Source of the DNA: an uncultured Ruminococcus sp.
GTDB taxonomy: Bacteria; Bacillota; Clostridia; Oscillospirales; Acutalibacteraceae
Length of the DNA: 64,000 nucleotides
Assembly: GCA_905233755.1 (NCBI GenBank)
Contig: CAJODM010000010.1
Coordinates: forward strand, 18,823 to 82,822
Reading direction: 5' to 3'
A program made the translations under genes and the position numbers. Positions 5,362 through 64,000 of the stretch are shown piece by piece (within the stretch, counting starts at the first letter, position 1; every line of letters starts with the position of its first letter). The notes beneath the pieces are model-generated. The model worked only from the letters and a program-made list of their open reading frames with translations, was not told the origin of the DNA and ran no database searches.

Positions 5362-6513
5362 TCAGTCATAGTCCGCGCATACCGGAGCGGACGCCTTCGC
5401 GGATGCCTCGTCATACCAGATGAGGTTGTTGCCGGTATCCTCGTCGAACAGCTGGATGAGCTCGGGCATGACGTTGAACTTGACGACCTTGCCCATCGAG
5501 ACATCGGCATCGAGACCGACGGTCGGGATAACCATGACGACATCATCGTCGCCGGACTTGGCGTGGATGTTGTACTCGGTACCCATCATCTCGCTGACCT
5601 CGATCTTTGCCGAGAGCTTGCCGTCGCCGACGGTGATGTGCTGCGGACGAACGCCGGCGGTGATGGTGACGGGCTTCTGACCCTTCGACTTGAGCGCCTT
5701 CTGCTGGAACTCGCTGAGCTCGAACTTCTCGCCGCGGATCTCGGCATAGTAGACGTCCTTCTCGAGCAGCAGCTTGCTGCCCTTGAAGAAGTTCATCACC
5801 GGCATCCCGATGAATCCGGCGACAAAGAGGTTCACCGGCTTGTTGAACAGCTCCTGCGGGGTGCCGATCTGGTTGACATAGCCGTCCTTCATGATAACGA
5901 TACGGTCGGCGAGCGTCATCGCCTCGGTCTGGTCATGGGTAACATACATGAAGGTGGTGTCGATACGCTGACGCAGCTTGATGATCTCGGCGCGCATCTC
6001 GTTGCGCAGCTTTGCGTCAAGGTTAGAGAGCGGCTCATCCATCAAAAAGACCTTGGGGTTGCGGACCATCGCGCGTCCGATAGCGACACGCTGGCGCTGA
6101 CCGCCGGAGAGCGCCTTGGGCTTGCGGTCAAGGTACTGGGTGATGCCCAGGATGTTGGCGACCTCCTTGACCTTCTCGTCGATCTGTGCCTTGGGGGTTC
6201 TCTTGAGCTTGAGGGCGAACGCCATGTTGTCGCGAACCGTCATATGCGGATAGAGCGCATAGTTCTGGAACACCATCGCAATGTCTCTGTCCTTGGGGAC
6301 GATGTCGTTCATCAGGCTGCCGTCGATGTACAGCTCGCCTTCGCTGATGTCCTCAAGCCCCGCGACCATGCGCAGAGTGGTGGACTTTCCGCATCCGGAC
6401 GGGCCGACCAGCACGATAAATTCCTTATCAGCGATGGTCAGGTTGACGTCGTGAACGGCAGTGACCTTGTTGTCATAGATTTTCTTGATTCCCTTTAAGA
6501 TGACTTCGGACAT
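5362..6513 (-). CDS. msmX: Carbohydrate ABC transporter ATPase (MsmX/UgpC/MsiK type)
   Basis: GPSGCGKST, LSGGQRQR, FLMDEPLSNLDA, YVTHDQ; start at MSEVILK. Confidence 0.92.
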   Translation of the reverse strand: MSEVILKGIKKIYDNKVTAVHDVNLTIADKEFIVLVGPSGCGKSTTLRMVAGLEDISEGELYIDGSLMNDIVPKDRDIAMVFQNYALYPHMTVRDNMAFALKLKRTPKAQIDEKVKEVANILGITQYLDRKPKALSGGQRQRVAIGRAMVRNPKVFLMDEPLSNLDAKLRNEMRAEIIKLRQRIDTTFMYVTHDQTEAMTLADRIVIMKDGYVNQIGTPQELFNKPVNLFVAGFIGMPVMNFFKGSKLLLEKDVYYAEIRGEKFELSEFQQKALKSKGQKPVTITAGVRPQHITVGDGKLSAKIEVSEMMGTEYNIHAKSGDDDVVMVIPTVGLDADVSMGKVVKFNVMPELIQLFDEDTGNNLIWYDEASAKASAPVCADYD

Positions 6514-26723: not shown

Positions 26724-26810
26724 CAGTTTTTCAGTCTTCAGTTTTCAGTATTCATTTAGAAAACCCTGTCGCTGCACTTAAGATTGAAGACTGAATACTT
26801 AAGAATGAAT
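26724..26810. repeat. Two inverted heptamer arrays around a 25-bp core
   Basis: (CAGTYTT)n at 26724-26754 and (AAGACTG)n-like at 26780-26810. Confidence 0.7.
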
Positions 26811-56437: not shown

Positions 56438-57037
56438 ATGGCTAAGAACACCCAGCCCATTGCGAAGCGGTGCCGCGCGCTCGGCATCTCTCCGGCTGTG
56501 ATGGGCTATTCGAAGAAGACCTCTAACCGCAACCCCGGCGGCAAGATGAGAAGAAAGCAGTCCGAGTACGGCCGTCAGCTCACCGAGAAGCAGAAGGTGA
56601 AGTTCGTCTACGGCGTGCTCGAGAAGCAGTTCCGTATGTACTATGAGAAGGCGGAGAAGATGGAGGGCAAGACCGGTGAGAACCTGCTGTCCCTGGTCGA
56701 GCGTCGGCTTGACAACGTCGTGTTCCGTCTGGGGCTTGCGCGCACCCGCCGTGAGGCGCGCCAGCTCGTCAACCATGCCCACTATACCGTCAACGGCAAG
56801 AAGGTCAACATCCCGTCGTATCTGGTCAAGGTCGGCGATGTGATCGCTGTGTCCGACGGCTCTAAGAGCTCTGCATATTTCAAGGCATTGGCCGAGGGCG
56901 AAGGTGCCGCTCCTGTCATTCCGAAATGGCTCGAGACCACCGACAGCTTCTCCGGTAAGGTTATCGCTGCGCCCGCGCGCGACGATATCGACTTCCCTGT
57001 CGAGGAACACCTCATCGTCGAGCTGTACTCCAAGTAA
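56438..57037 (+). CDS. rpsD: 30S ribosomal protein S4
   Basis: SEYGRQL.EKQK, RRLDNVVFR. Confidence 0.98.
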   Translation: MAKNTQPIAKRCRALGISPAVMGYSKKTSNRNPGGKMRRKQSEYGRQLTEKQKVKFVYGVLEKQFRMYYEKAEKMEGKTGENLLSLVERRLDNVVFRLGLARTRREARQLVNHAHYTVNGKKVNIPSYLVKVGDVIAVSDGSKSSAYFKALAEGEGAAPVIPKWLETTDSFSGKVIAAPARDDIDFPVEEHLIVELYSK

Positions 57038-57144
57038 TTGTCAGACAGGTCCCGCGAAGGACGCATCTGCATGGGTCGGGCGGCATGACGCTGTCCGGCG
57101 GCTCTGCTGATGCAGAGCAGAAATAGAATAAGGAGGATTCGCCA

Positions 57145-58098
57145 ATGATTGAGATAGAAAAACCCAGGATTGATACAGAAGAGTTATCCCCCGACGGCAA
57201 GTACGGCAGGTTTGTCGTAGAACCGCTTGAGCGCGGATTCGGCAACACGCTGGGCAACTCGCTGCGCCGCGTTCTGCTCTCCTCCCTCGAGGGCGTGGCC
57301 GTCACCTCCATCAAGGTGGACGGCGTGCTCCACGAGTTCTCCACGATCGAAGGTGTCAAGGAAGACATGACCGAGATCGTGCTGAACATGAAGTCCCTCG
57401 TCGCCAAGCTCCACTCCAACGGCCCCAAGATGGTCGAGATCTCGGCCGAGGGTCCGTGCGAGGTGACCGCCGAGAGCATCAAGTGTGACAGCGAGGTCGA
57501 GATCCTCAACCCCGAGCTGCATATCGCCTCGCTCGCCGACGGCGCCAAGCTCTCGATGGAGATCACCCTCGACAAGGGTCGCGGCTATATCCCCGCCGAG
57601 CGCAACAAGCTCATCGCGGGCAACGAGATCATCGGTGTGCTGCCGGTCGACTCGATCTACACGCCGGTGCTCAAGGTGAACTACACCGTTGACAACACCC
57701 GCGTCGGCCAGATCACCGACTATGACAAGCTCACCCTCTCGGTCTGGACGAACGGCGTCATCAACGCTCAGGAGGCGGTCTCGCTGGCTGCCAAGGTGCT
57801 CACCGAGCATCTGAACCTGTTCGTGAACCTCTCTGACCACGGCTACAACACCGAGATCATGGTCGAGAAGGACGACAAGGGCAAGGAGAAGGTGCTCGAG
57901 ATGACGATCGAAGAGCTCGACCTGTCCGTGCGCTCGTTCAACTGCCTCAAGCGCGCCGGTATCAACACCGTCGAAGACCTCATCAGCAAGTCCGAGGAGG
58001 ATATGATGAAGGTCCGCAACCTCGGCCGCAAATCGCTCGAAGAGGTTGTCTACAAGCTGGATACACTTGGCTTCAGTCTCCGCAAGGAAGACGAATAA
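57145..58098 (+). CDS. rpoA: RNA polymerase alpha subunit
   Basis: [31 protein letters not shown]. Confidence 0.98.
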
Positions 58099-58122
58099 TT
58101 TATACGAAAAGGAGTGATATAG

Positions 58123-58464
58123 ATGCCGGGTACTAGAAAACTGGGCAGAGCGACCGACGCGCGTCTGGCGATGCTGCGCGCTCTCGTCACGTTCTTGTTC
58201 GAGAACGGCAAGATCGAAACTACCCTCTCACGTGCGAAGGAGGTCGCCTCCCTCTCTGAGAAGATGATCACGATCGCGAAGAAGGATACCCTCGCGAGCA
58301 AGCGTCAGCTCATGGCGTTCATCACCAAGGAGGACGTCGCGACCAAGCTCATCAAGGAGATCGCGCCGAAGTACGCCGACCGCAACGGCGGCTACACCCG
58401 CATCACGAAGATCGGTCCCCGCCGCGGCGACGCCGCCGAAATGGCGATTATCGAACTGATCTGA
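58123..58464 (+). CDS. rplQ: 50S ribosomal protein L17
   Basis: [19 protein letters not shown]. Confidence 0.98.
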
Positions 58465-58478
58465 GAATCTGAGAATAT

Positions 58479-58509
58479 GCCCATCCGTCCGCGGGTGGGC
58501 TATTTTTTT
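58479..58509 (+). terminator. rplQ terminator
   Basis: GCCCATCC/GGGTGGGC followed by T7. Confidence 0.9.
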
Positions 58510-58697
58510 AGTGAATAGTGAATGGTGAAGAGTGAAGAGTTGCGGGAAACCCCTTCGGGGCTTTGGATTTCTAGAATAGGAATACCTATGTCCGGGTCAT
58601 CCTGAATGGAGCGTAGCGACATGAAGGATCTGAGCGCACAGGTGTTGCTATCCACTGTACCGCCGCAGGGATAACGCCGTCGGTGTACTAAGAATCT

Positions 58698-59438
58698 TCA
58701 CTTCACTCTGTTTTCGATTTGCGGTCGTCCTGCTGTGAGGATGCTTTTTGCAAGCTTGACGAACGCGGCGGTCTCGTCCGGTGTACAGTATCGCGGGCTG
58801 CCGCGCTTCTGATGCTCGTCTGTTCCGCTCGGGTCATCCCATACCCCCGATGGCTCCTCTTGATCCATCCACAGCTCATCGACCGATACATGCGTCTGTG
58901 TCGGGGAGGAATATTCTTTAGGTTCTTCTCCTTTTGAAGAAGCTAAAGAATATTCCGATATGATATCTTCATATTCTTTATCTTCTTCTTCTTCTTTTTC
59001 TTTTTCTTTTTCTTGGTTGTTGGGGGTTGTTTTGGATTCAAGGGGGGTTGTTTTGGATTCAAGGGGGGTTGTTTTGGATTCAAGGGGGGTTGTTTTGGAT
59101 TCAAGGGGGGTTGTTTTAGATTCAACGGGGGTTGTTTTTCGGTTGTTTTTGGAGGATGTTTTGGCGTTCTGATTCCCTTTGGACGCGCCGCCCTTTTTCC
59201 CGTTCTCAACGGATGTGAAGTAGCGCAGATAGTCGCGGTCGATCTGAGCCGACAGCAGGTCGAACATCACAGTGACGATCGTGTCGCTGTCATCGAGGAC
59301 GACCCCGTCGGTCACATAGGCGAACAGCGCCTTGTACAGCTGCCCTGCCTGCGCGTCTGTCAGCCGGCTGATCGCGCGGTGGGAATCAAGATAGCAGATG
59401 AAGTAGGGCGGTCGCTTGTCGGATGTGAGGTGGTTCAT
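58698..59438 (-). CDS. Orphan phage replisome-organiser-like protein (DUF6291-like N-terminus) with ESKTTPL repeats
   Basis: LTDAQAGQLYKALFAY...IDRD..RY...ENGKKGG pattern; strong AAAGGAG RBS before ATG 59438. Confidence 0.7.
   Translation of the reverse strand: MNHLTSDKRPPYFICYLDSHRAISRLTDAQAGQLYKALFAYVTDGVVLDDSDTIVTVMFDLLSAQIDRDYLRYFTSVENGKKGGASKGNQNAKTSSKNNRKTTPVESKTTPLESKTTPLESKTTPLESKTTPLESKTTPNNQEKEKEKEEEEDKEYEDIISEYSLASSKGEEPKEYSSPTQTHVSVDELWMDQEEPSGVWDDPSGTDEHQKRGSPRYCTPDETAAFVKLAKSILTAGRPQIENRVK
59022..59138. repeat. 21-bp tandem repeat, five copies plus a partial, inside the CDS
   Basis: GGGGGTTGTTTTGGATTCAAG, four identical copies and one with two changes. Confidence 0.95.
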
Positions 59439-59475
59439 AGTTAATTCTCCTTTCACCTATGGCGCAAAAAGAGAA

Positions 59476-59501
59476 AAAGTTGCATACTATTATGCAACTT
59501 T
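59476..59501. promoter_or_regulatory. Perfect 11-4-11 palindrome upstream of orphan gene
   Basis: AAAGTTGCATA-CTAT-TATGCAACTTT. Confidence 0.55.
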
Positions 59502-59628
59502 CGGAAAAATGTTTGAAGTTTCTAATCTTCATTCTTCTCTCGTCACTATACTTTCACCATTCAAAACCCAATCGGGTGCGGGTGTCCCGCCCACAACCTC
59601 TTCATTCTTCAATCTTCACTCTTCACTG

Positions 59629-59772
59629 CGGACGTTTCCTCGGCACCGTAGGGACGGTGACCACACCGTCCGCCCACACGGACGTTTCCTCGGCACTGTA
59701 GGGACGGTGACCACACCGTCCGCCCACACGGACGTTTCCTCGGCACTGTAGGGACGGTGACCACACCGTCCG
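59629..59772. repeat. 50-bp tandem repeat x2.9, each with a GTAG-type REP hairpin
   Basis: Units start at 59629, 59679, 59729; GTAG-GGACGGTG-ACCA-CACCGTCC. Confidence 0.9.
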
Positions 59773-59838
59773 AATATCAATCCAAAAATCCGCAGGATTT
59801 TCCCACAACTCTTCACTCTTCACCATTCACTATTCACT

Positions 59839-59872
59839 AAAAAGAAGGAGCTGCCGCGACAGCGACAGCTCC
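59839..59872 (-). terminator. eno terminator
   Basis: Minus strand GGAGCTGTCGC/GCGGCAGCTCC followed by TTCTTTTT. Confidence 0.88.
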
Positions 59873-59899
59873 GGGATAGTGAATTGTCAGACCGATCGG

Positions 59900-61210
<1,311 letters not shown>

Positions 61211-61241
61211 TTACAAAAAATTCCGGATTTCCGTTGCCATC

Positions 61242-61270
61242 AGTATAGCATACGAAATCCGGCTTTTCAA
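61242..61270 (-). promoter_or_regulatory. sigmaA promoter of eno
   Basis: TTGAAA-N17-TATACT with TGn. Confidence 0.75.
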
Positions 61271-61370
61271 TAGCATGAGGGAAAAATAGCTGAAAAATCA
61301 CACGAGTTTCATCCCACTCTACTGCATAATCACGAAAGTTCCGCATATAGTATGCAGTGGGTGATTATTT

Positions 61371-61847
61371 ATGTATAAGAAGAATTGGAAGACCTTTGTG
61401 CTGTGGATCCTGCTGACCGAGGCGGTCGGCGGGCTGTCGGCGCTGCTCACGCGCGACGGGATGGAGCGGTATGCCGCCGAGACGATTCAGCCGCCGCTGT
61501 CGCCGCCGTCGGTGGTGTTCCCGATCGTGTGGACGGTGCTGTACCTGCTGATGGGGATCGGCGCGGCGATGGTCGCCCTCAACGGCAGGGGCGAGGACCG
61601 GAAGATCGCGCTGTGGCTCTATGGCGGCCAGCTGCTGTTCAACTTTCTGTGGAGCATCATCTTCTTCAACATGCGGGCGTATCTGGTCGCGCTGATCTGG
61701 ATCATCGTGCTGTGGGTGCTGATCCTGTTGATGATGATCTACTTCTACCGCGTCAGCCGCACCGCCGCCCGGCTGCAGATACCGTATATCCTGTGGGTCG
61801 CCTTTGCCACCTATCTGACCGCCGCGGTGTTCGCCCTCAACGGCTAG
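61371..61847 (+). CDS. tspO: TspO/MBR tryptophan-rich sensory protein
   Basis: PP..VFPIVWTVLY.LMG, QLLFNFLWSIIFF, IPYILWVAFATYL. Confidence 0.92.
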   Translation: MYKKNWKTFVLWILLTEAVGGLSALLTRDGMERYAAETIQPPLSPPSVVFPIVWTVLYLLMGIGAAMVALNGRGEDRKIALWLYGGQLLFNFLWSIIFFNMRAYLVALIWIIVLWVLILLMMIYFYRVSRTAARLQIPYILWVAFATYLTAAVFALNG

Positions 61848-61871
61848 GCATCCGGTACAATATCCGTACTC

Positions 61872-61981
61872 GCTGAAAAATGGCAATATTTCGGCAATTC
61901 TCGGCTTATCAATCTTGGCAGGCGCCAGCCTGCCTGCACTTTCTGCACCGATACTTGCTCGAAATCTTGCTCATTTTCAGT
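61872..61981. other. Rod-shaped hairpin, copy C of the apical-motif family
   Basis: 61873-61904 pairs with 61948-61980; 19-mer 61919-61937 identical to copy A. Confidence 0.75.
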
Positions 61982-62128
61982 TCTTCTAAGTTTTGCCGGA
62001 GCAGATTTCCGTCCGATCGCGGCAAAGCCACAGGGAACCCTGACGGGTTCACGAGGATTTTAACAAAGAGCGGGCGGAAATATGCCCGTCAAAACCGGGT
62101 TCGGATATTGCATCGAATGCCTAGGTGG

Positions 62129-62157
62129 TTGCAAAACCCCGCCCGATGTGGTATATT
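62129..62157 (+). promoter_or_regulatory. sigmaA promoter of tdk
   Basis: TTGCAA-N17-TATATT with TGn. Confidence 0.7.
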
Positions 62158-62191
62158 CTTCATAGGATAAGAGAAAGAGGAATGTACCGCG

Positions 62192-62764
62192 ATGGCAAAA
62201 CTGTATTTCAAATACGGCGCGATGGGCTCGTCCAAGTCCGCCAACGCCCTGATCACCAAGTTCAACTATGAGGAGCGCGGGATGACCGTCTGGCTGATCA
62301 AGCCCTCGACCGACGACCGCGACGGCGCGGATCATATCCGCTCGCGCATCGGGCTCGACGCCGTTGCCGACGTGATCCGTCCGGACGACGACGTCCGACA
62401 GCGGCTGAGGAGCCATTGTGACATCGACGTCATCATCGCCGACGAGAGCCAGTTCTTCACCGCCTTGCAGATCGACCAGCTGCGCGAGATCGTGGATCGG
62501 CAGGATATACCGGTGCTGTGCTTTGGGCTGAGGACGGACTTTCGGACCCGGCTGTTCCCGGGATCTCAGCGGCTGTTCGAGGTCGCCGACTCTATCACCG
62601 AGATCAAGACCGTCTGCGCCTGCGGGTCAAAGGCGATCGTCAACGCGCGCATCGACGACTGCGGCAACATCGTTACCACGGGCGAGCAGGTGCTGCTCGG
62701 CGGCAACGACCGGTACGTCGCGATGTGCCACCGCTGCTGGTCGAAGGCGATCGGACAGCAATAG
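62192..62764 (+). CDS. tdk: Thymidine kinase
   Basis: YGAMGSSKS, DESQF, FGLRTDF, CACG...MCHRC. Confidence 0.96.
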   Translation: MAKLYFKYGAMGSSKSANALITKFNYEERGMTVWLIKPSTDDRDGADHIRSRIGLDAVADVIRPDDDVRQRLRSHCDIDVIIADESQFFTALQIDQLREIVDRQDIPVLCFGLRTDFRTRLFPGSQRLFEVADSITEIKTVCACGSKAIVNARIDDCGNIVTTGEQVLLGGNDRYVAMCHRCWSKAIGQQ

Positions 62765-62767
62765 AAT

Positions 62768-62817
62768 CCAAAAATCCGAAGCGTTTCCCGCAACTCTTCA
62801 CTTTTTCATCTTCACTA
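62768..62817. repeat. Third copy of the heptamer-array repeat that forms the cassette ends
   Basis: TTTCCCGCAACTCTTCACT (62784-62802) is the exact reverse complement of 58531-58549. Confidence 0.85.
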
Positions 62818-62820
62818 TCG

Positions 62821-62857
62821 AAAACCGGGCTGTCGTGCTGACAGCCCGGTTCTTATT
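62821..62857. terminator. Bidirectional terminator between tdk and ade
   Basis: AACCGGGCTGTC/GACAGCCCGGTT with A/T tracts on both sides. Confidence 0.85.
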
Positions 62858-64000
62858 CTTCTTCTGCCTCGATCGAGAGGAACCGCTGGTGCGTGACGTC
62901 GAACAGCCCGCGGTCGGTGAGCTTGAGCTCGGGGATCACCGGCAGCGACATGAAGCACAGCGTGACGATCGGGTCGAGCGCCTCGCGCACGCCCAGCTGC
63001 TCGATTGCACACCGCTCGACGCGGTGCAGCCGGTCGCGCACCTGTTCGGCGGGGCAGTCGCTCATCAGCCCGGCTATCGGCAGCGGCAGGCACTCGAGCA
63101 CCGTATGATCGAGCGTGACGACGATCCCGCCGCGCTGGTCGATCAGTTGCTCGACGGCGAACGCCATCTCGTCCTCGCTGACGCCGACGACGAGGATATT
63201 GTGCGAGTCGTGCCCCACGGTCAGCGCGATCGCGCCGCGCCGGATGCCGTACCCGCGGATCAGCGCGTTCGCGACCTTGCCGGTATGATGGTGGCGCTCG
63301 ATGACCGATATCCGCGCCACATCGTCGAGCGCGTGATACAGGAGCGTCCCGTTCTCATCGCGGTCGATCCGGGCGATCCCGCAGCCGGTCACCACGGTAT
63401 CGGGACGCACGTCGATGACGTGAACCCTGTCGGAAGTGAGCCGCAGCCGCAGCCGCTCGGGTGAGAAATCCGCGACGTGCATGCTGTTGGCGACCGGGCC
63501 CGGGTCCTCGCGGGTGAGGGGGAGCAGGTAGCGCCCGTCCTCGGCGACAAGCTCGCCCCCGATCCATACCGCCGTGATATGAAAGTCCGACAGATCGTCG
63601 GCGAGCACGATATCTGCCCGCCTGTGGGGGGCGATCGCCCCGCGATCCGTCAGCCCGTAACACTCGGCGGCGTTGAGCGTTGCCATCTGCACCGCTGTGA
63701 TGGGATCGACGCCGCAGCAGACGCACACCCTGAGCAGATCGTCGATATCCCCGTGTGTCAGCAGATCGACCGACTGGCGGTCGTCAGAGCACAGCAGACA
63801 CCGCCGCGCGGCATACTCGTCGAGCCCCTCGAGCAGCATCGGCAGCTCGCGGCACGCAGAGCCGTAGCGCAGCTGGACATACATCCCGCCGTCGAGCCGC
63901 TCGCGCATCTGATGGATGGAGCCGCACTCGTGGTCGGTGCGGATCCCCGCCGCCAGATATCCCATAAGGGAGCTGCCGTCGAGCGACGGCGCGTGGCCGT
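62853..64000 (-). CDS. ade: Adenine deaminase, 5'-truncated by window edge
   Basis: DGHAP, TDHEC, CSDDR, HDSHN, LPIAGLMS, LSLPVIPELKLTDRGLFDV-like C-terminus. Confidence 0.93.
   Translation of the reverse strand, partial: GHAPSLDGSSLMGYLAAGIRTDHECGSIHQMRERLDGGMYVQLRYGSACRELPMLLEGLDEYAARRCLLCSDDRQSVDLLTHGDIDDLLRVCVCCGVDPITAVQMATLNAAECYGLTDRGAIAPHRRADIVLADDLSDFHITAVWIGGELVAEDGRYLLPLTREDPGPVANSMHVADFSPERLRLRLTSDRVHVIDVRPDTVVTGCGIARIDRDENGTLLYHALDDVARISVIERHHHTGKVANALIRGYGIRRGAIALTVGHDSHNILVVGVSEDEMAFAVEQLIDQRGGIVVTLDHTVLECLPLPIAGLMSDCPAEQVRDRLHRVERCAIEQLGVREALDPIVTLCFMSLPVIPELKLTDRGLFDVTHQRFLSIEAEEE

Follow-up and report, generated by a model that had tools for sequence, protein, structure and literature searches.

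Features of the rplQ-eno intergenic region

Between the convergent genes rplQ and eno of an uncultured Ruminococcus-like bacterium lies a 1.34-kb stretch of DNA, which is bounded by two inverted arms and encloses a single gene together with several kinds of repeats. We analysed this stretch within a window of 64,000 nt (the whole DNA considered, to which all positions without a contig number refer), corresponding to contig C10:18823-82822 of the source genome G000; other C numbers denote other contigs of this genome. The source genome comprises 1.67 Mb in 41 contigs, is 99.8% complete and has a GC content of approximately 58%. The closest named records are metagenome-assembled genomes of uncultured 'Ruminococcus sp.' from the rumen and from goat and deer gut.

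By BLAST, the arms (58505-58549 and 59843-59799) match in inverted orientation at 44 of 45 positions (97.8%) and still at 89% over 65 nt, while a repeat search extended them to 80 nt (58490-58569 and 59779-59858) with 83% complementarity. The inverted match is far beyond chance. Both arms start in, or directly after, the T-tract of the adjoining terminator, that of rplQ on the left and that of eno on the right. A preliminary description of this DNA had reported inverted ends matching at 44 of 45 positions, each beginning in the U-tract of a flanking terminator, and both searches and the positions of the T-tracts bore this out. When 58465-59899 was compared to the whole genome by BLAST, only module-sized pieces were recovered and the stretch as a whole proved to be single-copy. 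Almost all of its non-coding parts are dispersed modules, which we named M1 to M5. The features of the region are as follows.

58123-58464, plus strand: rplQ (Pfam Ribosomal_L17), the last gene of the ribosomal/rpoA cluster
58479-58509, plus strand: predicted intrinsic terminator of rplQ, a stem-loop (58479-58500) with T-tract, from a pattern scan
58503-58573, plus strand: left arm, a copy of M1 with 4.6 heptamers of the TAGTGAA type (58509-58540), then GAGTTGCGGG, a hairpin and TTTGGATT
58580-58713, plus strand: M2, a dispersed module of 120-135 nt
58698-59438, minus strand: open reading frame (ORF) of 246 aa with an N-terminal DUF6291 domain, a repeat-encoded linker and a C-terminus of about 70 aa
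58966-59138, minus strand: iteron-like array and A+T tract within the linker of the ORF, consisting of 5.6 units of 21 bp (59022-59138) and then an AAGAAG-rich tract with palindromes (58966-59014)
59445-59520, minus strand: M3, a leader with the palindrome AAAGTTGCATA-ATAG-TATGCAACTTT and a T-tract, then GCGCCATAGGTGAAAGGAG (ribosome-binding site)
59526-59628, minus strand: M4, a dispersed GC hairpin (GGGTGCGGGTGTCCCGCCC) with heptamer runs on either side
59629-59778, minus strand: M5, three 50-bp units in each of which GTAGGG precedes the hairpin GGACGGTG/ACCA/CACCGTCC, similar to repetitive extragenic palindromes (REP)
59779-59845, minus strand: right arm, a copy of M1 with heptamers identical to those of the left arm and a hairpin of a different type
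59847-59872, minus strand: predicted intrinsic terminator of eno, a stem-loop with T-tract, from a pattern scan
59900-61195, minus strand: eno, converging on rplQ; beyond it lie tspO, tdk and a minus-strand gene
62765-62818, minus strand: third copy of M1, directly behind the terminator (62824-62849) of a minus-strand gene ending at 62853

Tandem arrays within the stretch have unit lengths of 7 bp (58509-58540, 59598-59627 and 59808-59839), 21 bp (5.6 units, 59022-59138) and 50 bp (2.9 units, 59629-59772), and the GC content is 0.41-0.56 compared to 0.59-0.66 in the flanking genes. Neither the ORF list nor Pfam revealed a transposase or integrase within the 1.34 kb. No direct target duplication was found, the flanks being two inward-reading terminator T-tracts that are inverted relative to each other. 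An Rfam scan of 57000-64000 at E<=1 yielded chance matches only. The lower GC content, the single gene (here the DUF6291 ORF) among several repeat types (the 7-, 21- and 50-bp arrays), and the lack of a transposase, integrase or target duplication had likewise been noted before, as had a third copy at 62768-62817; each point holds.

The arms are copies of a dispersed, terminator-associated repeat

Iterative nhmmer searches detected 54 copies of M1 in the genome, many of them at contig ends, indicating that this repeat family breaks assemblies. Read in its own direction, M1 consists of two to six (A)TAGTGAAGAG-type (GTGAAGA-type) heptamers, the conserved GAGTTGYGGGAAA, a hairpin with an A-tract and a T-tract on opposite sides, and TTTTGGATT, after which one of several alternative modules follows. 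The hairpin cores are of the types ATCC/GGAT, CGC/GCG, CCCC/GGGG and ACCC/GGGT. The left arm carries AAACCCC/TTC/GGGGCTT (58547-58563) and the right arm GAAAATCC/TGC/GGATTTTT (plus strand, 59784-59802). Some M1 copies have chimeric hairpins of two types, among them the third copy of the window (CGC 5' arm, GGAT 3' arm), indicating that M1 copies recombine. In 19 distinct hairpin sequences, 88.5% of the cells were paired and compensatory changes occurred in three of the six pairs; the covariation score of 0.327, compared to 0.178 in shuffles, was reached by none of 500 shuffles, and slid controls were low. No relation of M1 to any Rfam family was found.

The placement of M1 was examined using a home-made, codon-usage-based gene caller, a crude tool that gave 1301 genes and 83% coding sequence. 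Fifty-one of the 54 copies were intergenic. The gene on the heptamer side was co-oriented with M1 in 34 of 51 cases, and the gene on the other side was opposed in 30 of 45. Heptamer arrays of at least three units were intergenic in 29 of 32 cases, with 17% of the genome being intergenic. M1 started at the T-tract of a terminator-like hairpin in 13 of 52 copies versus 62 of 2000 random intergenic positions, an approximately 8-fold difference, and it tends to read away from the gene whose terminator T-tract immediately precedes it. M1 is enriched near gene 3' ends and in convergent spacers. As rplQ and eno converge and a copy of M1 lies behind the terminator of each, an inverted pair arises automatically and without any further assumption.

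The terminators in front of M1 show some recurrence of their own. The 25-nt terminator hairpin CCGGGCTGTCAGCACGACAGCCCGG (window 62824-62849) precedes M1 at three unrelated loci, including C25:~27400 and C16:~9170, and GCTGTC...GACAGC terminator stems recur at further loci, that of eno included. Some of these apparent gene terminators may belong to the repeat itself. Outside the M1 hits, the array scan recorded a looser heptamer run, ATGAATACTGAAAACTGAAGACTGAAAA, at window 26728-26755 on the minus strand.

Elsewhere in the genome, M1 copies lying a few kb apart form further inverted pairs around CoaD- and RsmD-type genes, and one of these copies adjoins a 619-aa gene that, judged by eye, is presumably uvrC; another pair, on C28, encloses several genes. 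We also considered heptamer runs as general terminal inverted repeats (TIRs) of compact units resembling MITEs (miniature inverted-repeat transposable elements). This was rejected, the only close inverted pair besides that of the window being one on C11. A loose scan for inverted heptamer pairs was noisy, with 139 matches compared to 43 in the control.

The two arms continue into different composites

On its inner side the left arm runs into M2 and the right arm into the M5 array, and either type of composite is found separately elsewhere in the genome. The M1+M2 composite of the left arm recurs on C9 (58518-58699 versus C9:50348-50537) and on C8 (58525-58621). The (M5)n-M1 composite of the right arm (59627-59844) is 92.7% identical over 218 nt to C6:116179-116396 and occurs in more diverged form on C11, C12, C25 and C8. 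On C25, an M1-M5 composite (C25:5629-6085) is tandemly repeated with a period of 135 bp in three to four units, indicating that composites can amplify locally. The same contig carries, at 5634-5671, an M1 copy with 97.4% identity to the left arm across 38 nt, although it lies on another contig than the window; the similarity of the two arms is thus within the normal range of the M1 family.

M2 has at least six other copies (C6, C20, C25, C26, C28 and C9), and the final codons and the stop of the enclosed ORF are located within it. It contains GTCATCCTGAATGGAGCGTAGCGACATGAAGGATCTGAG (window 58580-58700), which may resemble a motif that is frequent among dispersed gut-clostridial repeats. The palindrome of M5 spans 8 bp and exists in the covarying variants GGACGGTG and GGATGATG; M5 units are extragenic, multi-copy, single or arrayed, and mixed with other motifs. 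The Y1 transposase family of REP-associated tyrosine transposases (RAYT; PF01797) is absent from the source genome, control genomes being positive, and in relatives the occurrence of Y1 genes shows no correlation with that of the repeats. On these grounds we rejected RAYT/IS200 as the mobiliser.

A single M1 occupies the rplQ site in a relative

The M1 pattern was found in 11 of 101 species of the same genus, in some of them with the variant GTGAGGA, and in none of 100 other genera of the family, each represented by one genome. In G149, the rplQ terminator is followed by a single M1 (two heptamers and a CGC-type hairpin) and then by a cyclase-like gene; neither a partner M1 nor a DUF6291 gene is present at this rplQ site. 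No M1 occurs behind rplQ in G167 and L076, and a degenerate one occurs in G131 and G138, with the cyclase-like gene being next in all four. In the source genome the cyclase-like gene lies on C27, without M1.

An empty-site comparison covering same-genus representatives and 80 related loci showed that in relatives other genes follow rplQ and that none has the rplQ-eno junction; it yielded no empty site. An eno gene near rplQ was found in none of the 80 related loci, and across about 110 related loci the two genes adjoin each other in this species only. The absence of this junction in relatives, together with the location of the cyclase-like gene on another contig, indicates that the stretch lies at a lineage-specific rearrangement. 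In a separate search of 10 same-genus genomes, of which six have a completeness of 90% or more and a contamination of 5% or less, eno was matched in one only (76% identity, different context); either many of these species do not have eno or the first-look filter missed it.

The species has one other assembly, L029, which differs only in having three fewer 21-bp units. This difference of exactly three units (63 bp, 21 codons) is either a true polymorphism or an assembly collapse.

In the relative G182, rplQ is followed by an M1 with about 11 heptamers, other repeats and an inverted array with about 14 of them. A convergent gene pair lies farther on, one gene being IstB/DnaC-like and the other, of 168 aa and with an M3 leader, organizer-like, so that the phage-type genes stand beside the inverted heptamer arrays and not between them. 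Behind this rplQ (L059, on contig C59 of the same genome), the AGGAGTT-type arrays of 14 and 11 units at 1994-2092 and 2497-2575 face each other at a distance of 400 nt, and CGCAATGACA-type repeats occur between them and at the contig start.

The enclosed gene resembles phage replisome organizers

The enclosed ORF is preceded by a good ribosome-binding site, AAAGGAG, at a distance of 7 nt from the ATG. Pfam DUF6291 (PF19808) is matched over the first ~95 residues, at 1.5e-18 and with 67 bits compared to a cut-off of 27.2, as are PHROGs families of unknown function. Within 1.8 billion representative sequences the domain has 1395 relatives at E<=1e-3; among the matches listed, most start no later than residue ~15 in proteins that are 90-380 aa long. 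Partner domains in 90 relatives included Phg_2220_C (5), DnaB_2 (1) and PriCT_2 (1). For the full protein, a search of 5.8 billion proteins returned P0002 as the sole close relative, which is 91% identical and has the size of the gene in the sister assembly.

Structure prediction by AlphaFold2 from the single sequence of the whole protein gave a predicted local distance difference test (pLDDT) score of 42 and was unusable. We therefore used an alignment-based model of the N-terminal domain, which consists of three helices (pLDDT 86). In BFVD this model matched phage proteins annotated as 'DnaD domain protein', 'replisome organizer' and DUF6291, with template modelling (TM) scores of 0.62-0.74, a probability of 1.0 and a best E-value of about 1e-3. 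Sequence and fold searches of the PDB returned nothing significant, NCBIfam returned nothing, and tblastn against phage records gave only weak matches to hypothetical proteins of Flavobacterium phages.

The iteron-like array and the A+T tract in the linker resemble a phage-type origin, a role that we infer from sequence features. The organizer-like gene of G182 has the same layout, with 4.3 units of an 11-bp array followed by an AAGAAG tract; the two proteins share no detectable homology beyond a short DELW motif. No helicase or helicase-loader gene was found within the stretch, and the only match in the source genome is a distant DnaC-like gene on C23. Three remnants consisting of an M3-like leader, a 21-bp array and an A-rich tract were found at C20:18780-19200, C2:111550-111900 and C11:33400-33650. 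They contain no DUF6291 domain, stop after ...TTPNNQ and are not bracketed by M1 pairs. Array and A-rich tract may themselves form a dispersed, origin-like module.

A foreign composition of the gene was considered and rejected. The G+C content at third codon positions (GC3) is 0.58 for the whole gene versus 0.81; the N-terminal domain, at 0.80, is host-like, and the low value stems from the repeat-encoded linker. Composition thus provides no evidence of recent transfer. Taken together, the enclosed gene appears to be a DUF6291 member of the phage replisome-organizer type and a phage relic.

The leader M3 is shared with phage-derived genes

The core of M3 is a GTTGCAT-N6-ATGCAAC palindrome followed by a T-tract and GCGCCATAGGTGAAAGGAG. 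A sigma-70-like sequence, TTCAAA-17-CATAAT, overlaps the palindrome with its -10 element, raising the possibility that the palindrome is an operator. Its fold is, moreover, that of a terminator-like hairpin (z = -5). From these patterns, the palindrome may be either an operator or a terminator.

M3 also stands in front of a CHAP-domain gene (C18:14312-15259), a tail-fibre-like gene (C38:1600-5332) and the terS gene of a terS-terL-portal-capsid-baseplate cluster of 11 kb (C18:16168-27166). In contigs of IMG/VR, primase, terS and tail genes are likewise preceded by M3-like leaders. The C18 cluster, located amid housekeeping genes, comprises terS, terL, portal, protease/scaffold-like, capsid-like, LysM and baseplate-J-like genes; genes for a sheath, a tape measure, an integrase or replication were not seen in it. 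It could be a defective prophage or a regulon resembling a gene transfer agent (GTA).

Origin of the inverted pair

We conclude that the stretch probably represents two independent copies of a dispersed mosaic repeat around a phage replication relic and not one element with TIRs. By the same token, we consider it likely to be an intergenic region at a synteny breakpoint that was assembled as a mosaic of small dispersed modules around the relic gene. The modularity of the repeats, their placement, the covariation of the hairpin, the restriction to one lineage and the independent contexts of the two arms are direct observations. Two independent insertions of a dispersed repeat had been one proposal of the preliminary description, and the approximately 54 M1 copies, the different composites and the lone copy in G149 sustain it.

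As to the mechanism, the modules may have spread as selfish non-autonomous DNA or via recombination between copies. They would be tolerated behind terminators, where the M1 hairpin could act as a second, bidirectional terminator, judging from its pattern. The lengths of the heptamer and 50-bp arrays would change by slippage, and the near-identity of the arm heptamers could reflect either that the family has diverged little or that neighbouring copies underwent local gene conversion. The enclosed gene would specify an initiator of the phage replisome-organizer kind, with iterons of its own and an A+T-rich tract for unwinding in the linker region. It would be driven by the M3 leader that is common to the phage-derived genes of this genome, and it would have arrived with phage DNA and not with the repeats.

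Several points weigh against this interpretation. The heptamer runs of the two arms share 39 identical nt and match each other better than they match any other copy, which a common origin would fit as well. The compact unit C11:38380-38533 has inverted heptamer runs 70 nt apart, indicating that inverted pairing is not always an accident of convergent genes. The orientation statistics for M1 depend on the crude gene caller described above, and the roles as terminator, operator and origin are read from sequence patterns. No mobilising enzyme was identified, PF01797, the one transposase family surveyed, being absent. Finally, no strain free of the 1.34-kb unit was found, and independent insertion is read from the behaviour of the family, not from a directly seen event.

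A local origin of the inverted pair, in which one M1 was copied across by inverted duplication, by a junction-creating inversion between repeats or by gene conversion, appears unlikely. The identical heptamer runs next to different hairpins, the recombination evident from chimeric hairpins and the uniqueness of the rplQ-eno junction to this species would all agree with it. Against this stand the comparable identity between copies on different contigs, the lack of a partner breakpoint and the cyclase-like gene, which lies on C27 without M1.

Alternatively, the stretch could be the remains of one decayed phage or satellite that had used the 3' end of rplQ as its integration target, with the arms stemming from its ends or from att-like sequences. 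The phage-type replication gene with its phage-type leader would be in line with such an event, as would the organizer-like and IstB/DnaC-like genes of G182, which converge on rplQ and have the same leader. However, the arm sequence occurred in none of the 2.9 million viral contigs of IMG/VR, which speaks against M1 as a phage sequence, and it is present at about 50 chromosomal intergenic sites; no integrase was found, and between the protein of the source genome and that of G182 the only similarity detected is the short DELW motif. We therefore regard this alternative as very improbable. A phage origin of the enclosed gene is compatible with two independent repeat copies around it, and only the arms as phage ends are disfavoured.

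The least probable explanation, at very long odds, is a single non-autonomous cassette (a cargo-carrying MITE or composite) with the M1 arms as its ends and a transposase acting in trans, since in spite of the inverted arms, the foreign-type gene, the GC dip, the location at a synteny break and the compact unit on C11, the arms continue into different modules, neither a target duplication nor a transposase accompanies the unit, no Y1 transposase exists in the genome, the unit is single-copy and its protein has no close relative but the variant of the sister assembly, solitary M1 copies dominate and include the lone one at the same site of G149, and the inverted heptamer arrays of G182 adjoin phage-type genes rather than surround them. 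The preliminary description had proposed such a unit as well, naming repeat copies that are never paired around cargo elsewhere as the observation that would count against it. This is what the genome shows: inverted pairs elsewhere surround housekeeping genes of the CoaD and RsmD type, and the remnants of the enclosed gene are unbracketed.

Beyond the independent-insertion reading, two linked ideas can be raised that we hold to be unlikely. First, M1, M5, M2 and M4 could be a new, mobile repeat system that homes to terminators and whose modules are placed at T-tract ends by an enzyme in rumen Ruminococcus-like bacteria. Second, the phage-type initiator and origin of the enclosed gene could be a live part of an M3-marked, GTA-like regulon derived from a domesticated phage, which would also comprise the C18 terS-terL-portal-capsid-baseplate cluster, the CHAP lysin and the C38 tail gene. 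If the latter were true, the locus could amplify in situ upon firing of the regulon.

Comparison with known repeats and replication genes

The repeats would represent a new family of a known kind, i.e. small interspersed mosaic intergenic repeats, and by analogy their behaviour is closest to the BOX/SPRITE and REP/BIME (bacterial interspersed mosaic element) mosaics. Pneumococcal BOX elements are small, modular and intergenic, with a variable number of tandem boxB units between fixed modules, and the SPRITE hairpin, which resembles a Rho-independent terminator, is enriched close to gene 3' ends, the families being clustered (Croucher et al. 2011, PMC3049150). In the same way M1, M5, M2 and M4 combine as a mosaic with variable arrays and a terminator-like hairpin behind 3' ends, and as in SPRITE the M1 stem-loop, followed by a T-tract, is kept by covariation. 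In contrast to BOX/SPRITE, the 7-nt tandem module stands at the 5' edge and abuts a host terminator T-tract, neither TIRs nor target-site duplications were seen for the M1 family, the sequences showed no relation to those elements, and the repeats reside in a Ruminococcus-like lineage of the rumen. The likeness to REP/BIME lies in M5, with its GTAG(GG) beside an 8-bp palindrome and its extragenic single and arrayed copies mixed with other motifs. Unlike in the REP/BIME-RAYT systems of enterobacteria and pseudomonads, where REPs typically flank the RAYT gene, the source genome has no Y1/RAYT, and the arms are formed by M1 and not by the REP-like M5.

Tandem heptamers at many intergenic sites of one lineage, with no known mechanism of spread, are a trait shared with cyanobacterial STRR and the TAACTGA repeats. 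In the Beggiatoaceae genome, TAACTGA heptamers are located mostly a few nt upstream of start codons (PMC4679880). M1 differs in the heptamer unit and in its position behind terminators, with a conserved hairpin module following. The number of heptamers per set is two to six here and reaches about 14 in G182. Like the prokaryotic MITEs reviewed in PMC10969869, the repeats are small, non-coding, multi-copy, intergenic and predicted to fold; unlike these, a typical M1 copy has neither TIRs nor target duplications, and the 1.34-kb unit is unique in the genome.

The enclosed gene invites a different comparison. The phage replisome organizers lambda O and SPP1 G38P, whose own genes contain the origin, have an N-terminal DNA-binding domain, iterons and an A+T-rich tract encoded in the linker, and a short C-terminal part. 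The enclosed gene likewise carries its array and A+T tract in the linker and has a predicted organizer-type fold, and its analogue in G182 is accompanied by a DnaC/IstB-like loader gene. It differs from lambda O and SPP1 G38P in that no helicase-loader gene is adjacent, that no solved structure was matched for DUF6291, and that its binding and origin activities are putative.

Implications

A general caution follows for repeat-rich genomes: convergent genes with one repeat behind each terminator mimic a TIR transposon. The repeat family described here unites a heptamer array and REP-like arrays with a covarying, terminator-like hairpin that is putatively bidirectional. It occurs only in a sub-clade of uncultured 'Ruminococcus' from the ruminant gut, where it marks synteny breakpoints. 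Its exact abutment to terminator T-tracts raises the question of mechanism, that is, whether insertions are targeted to these sites or whether neutral insertions survive there. The enclosed gene is a further instance of an iteron-like array lying inside the very gene that encodes a DUF6291 protein, and the position of this array within the gene supports a role as replication initiator for a domain of unknown function.

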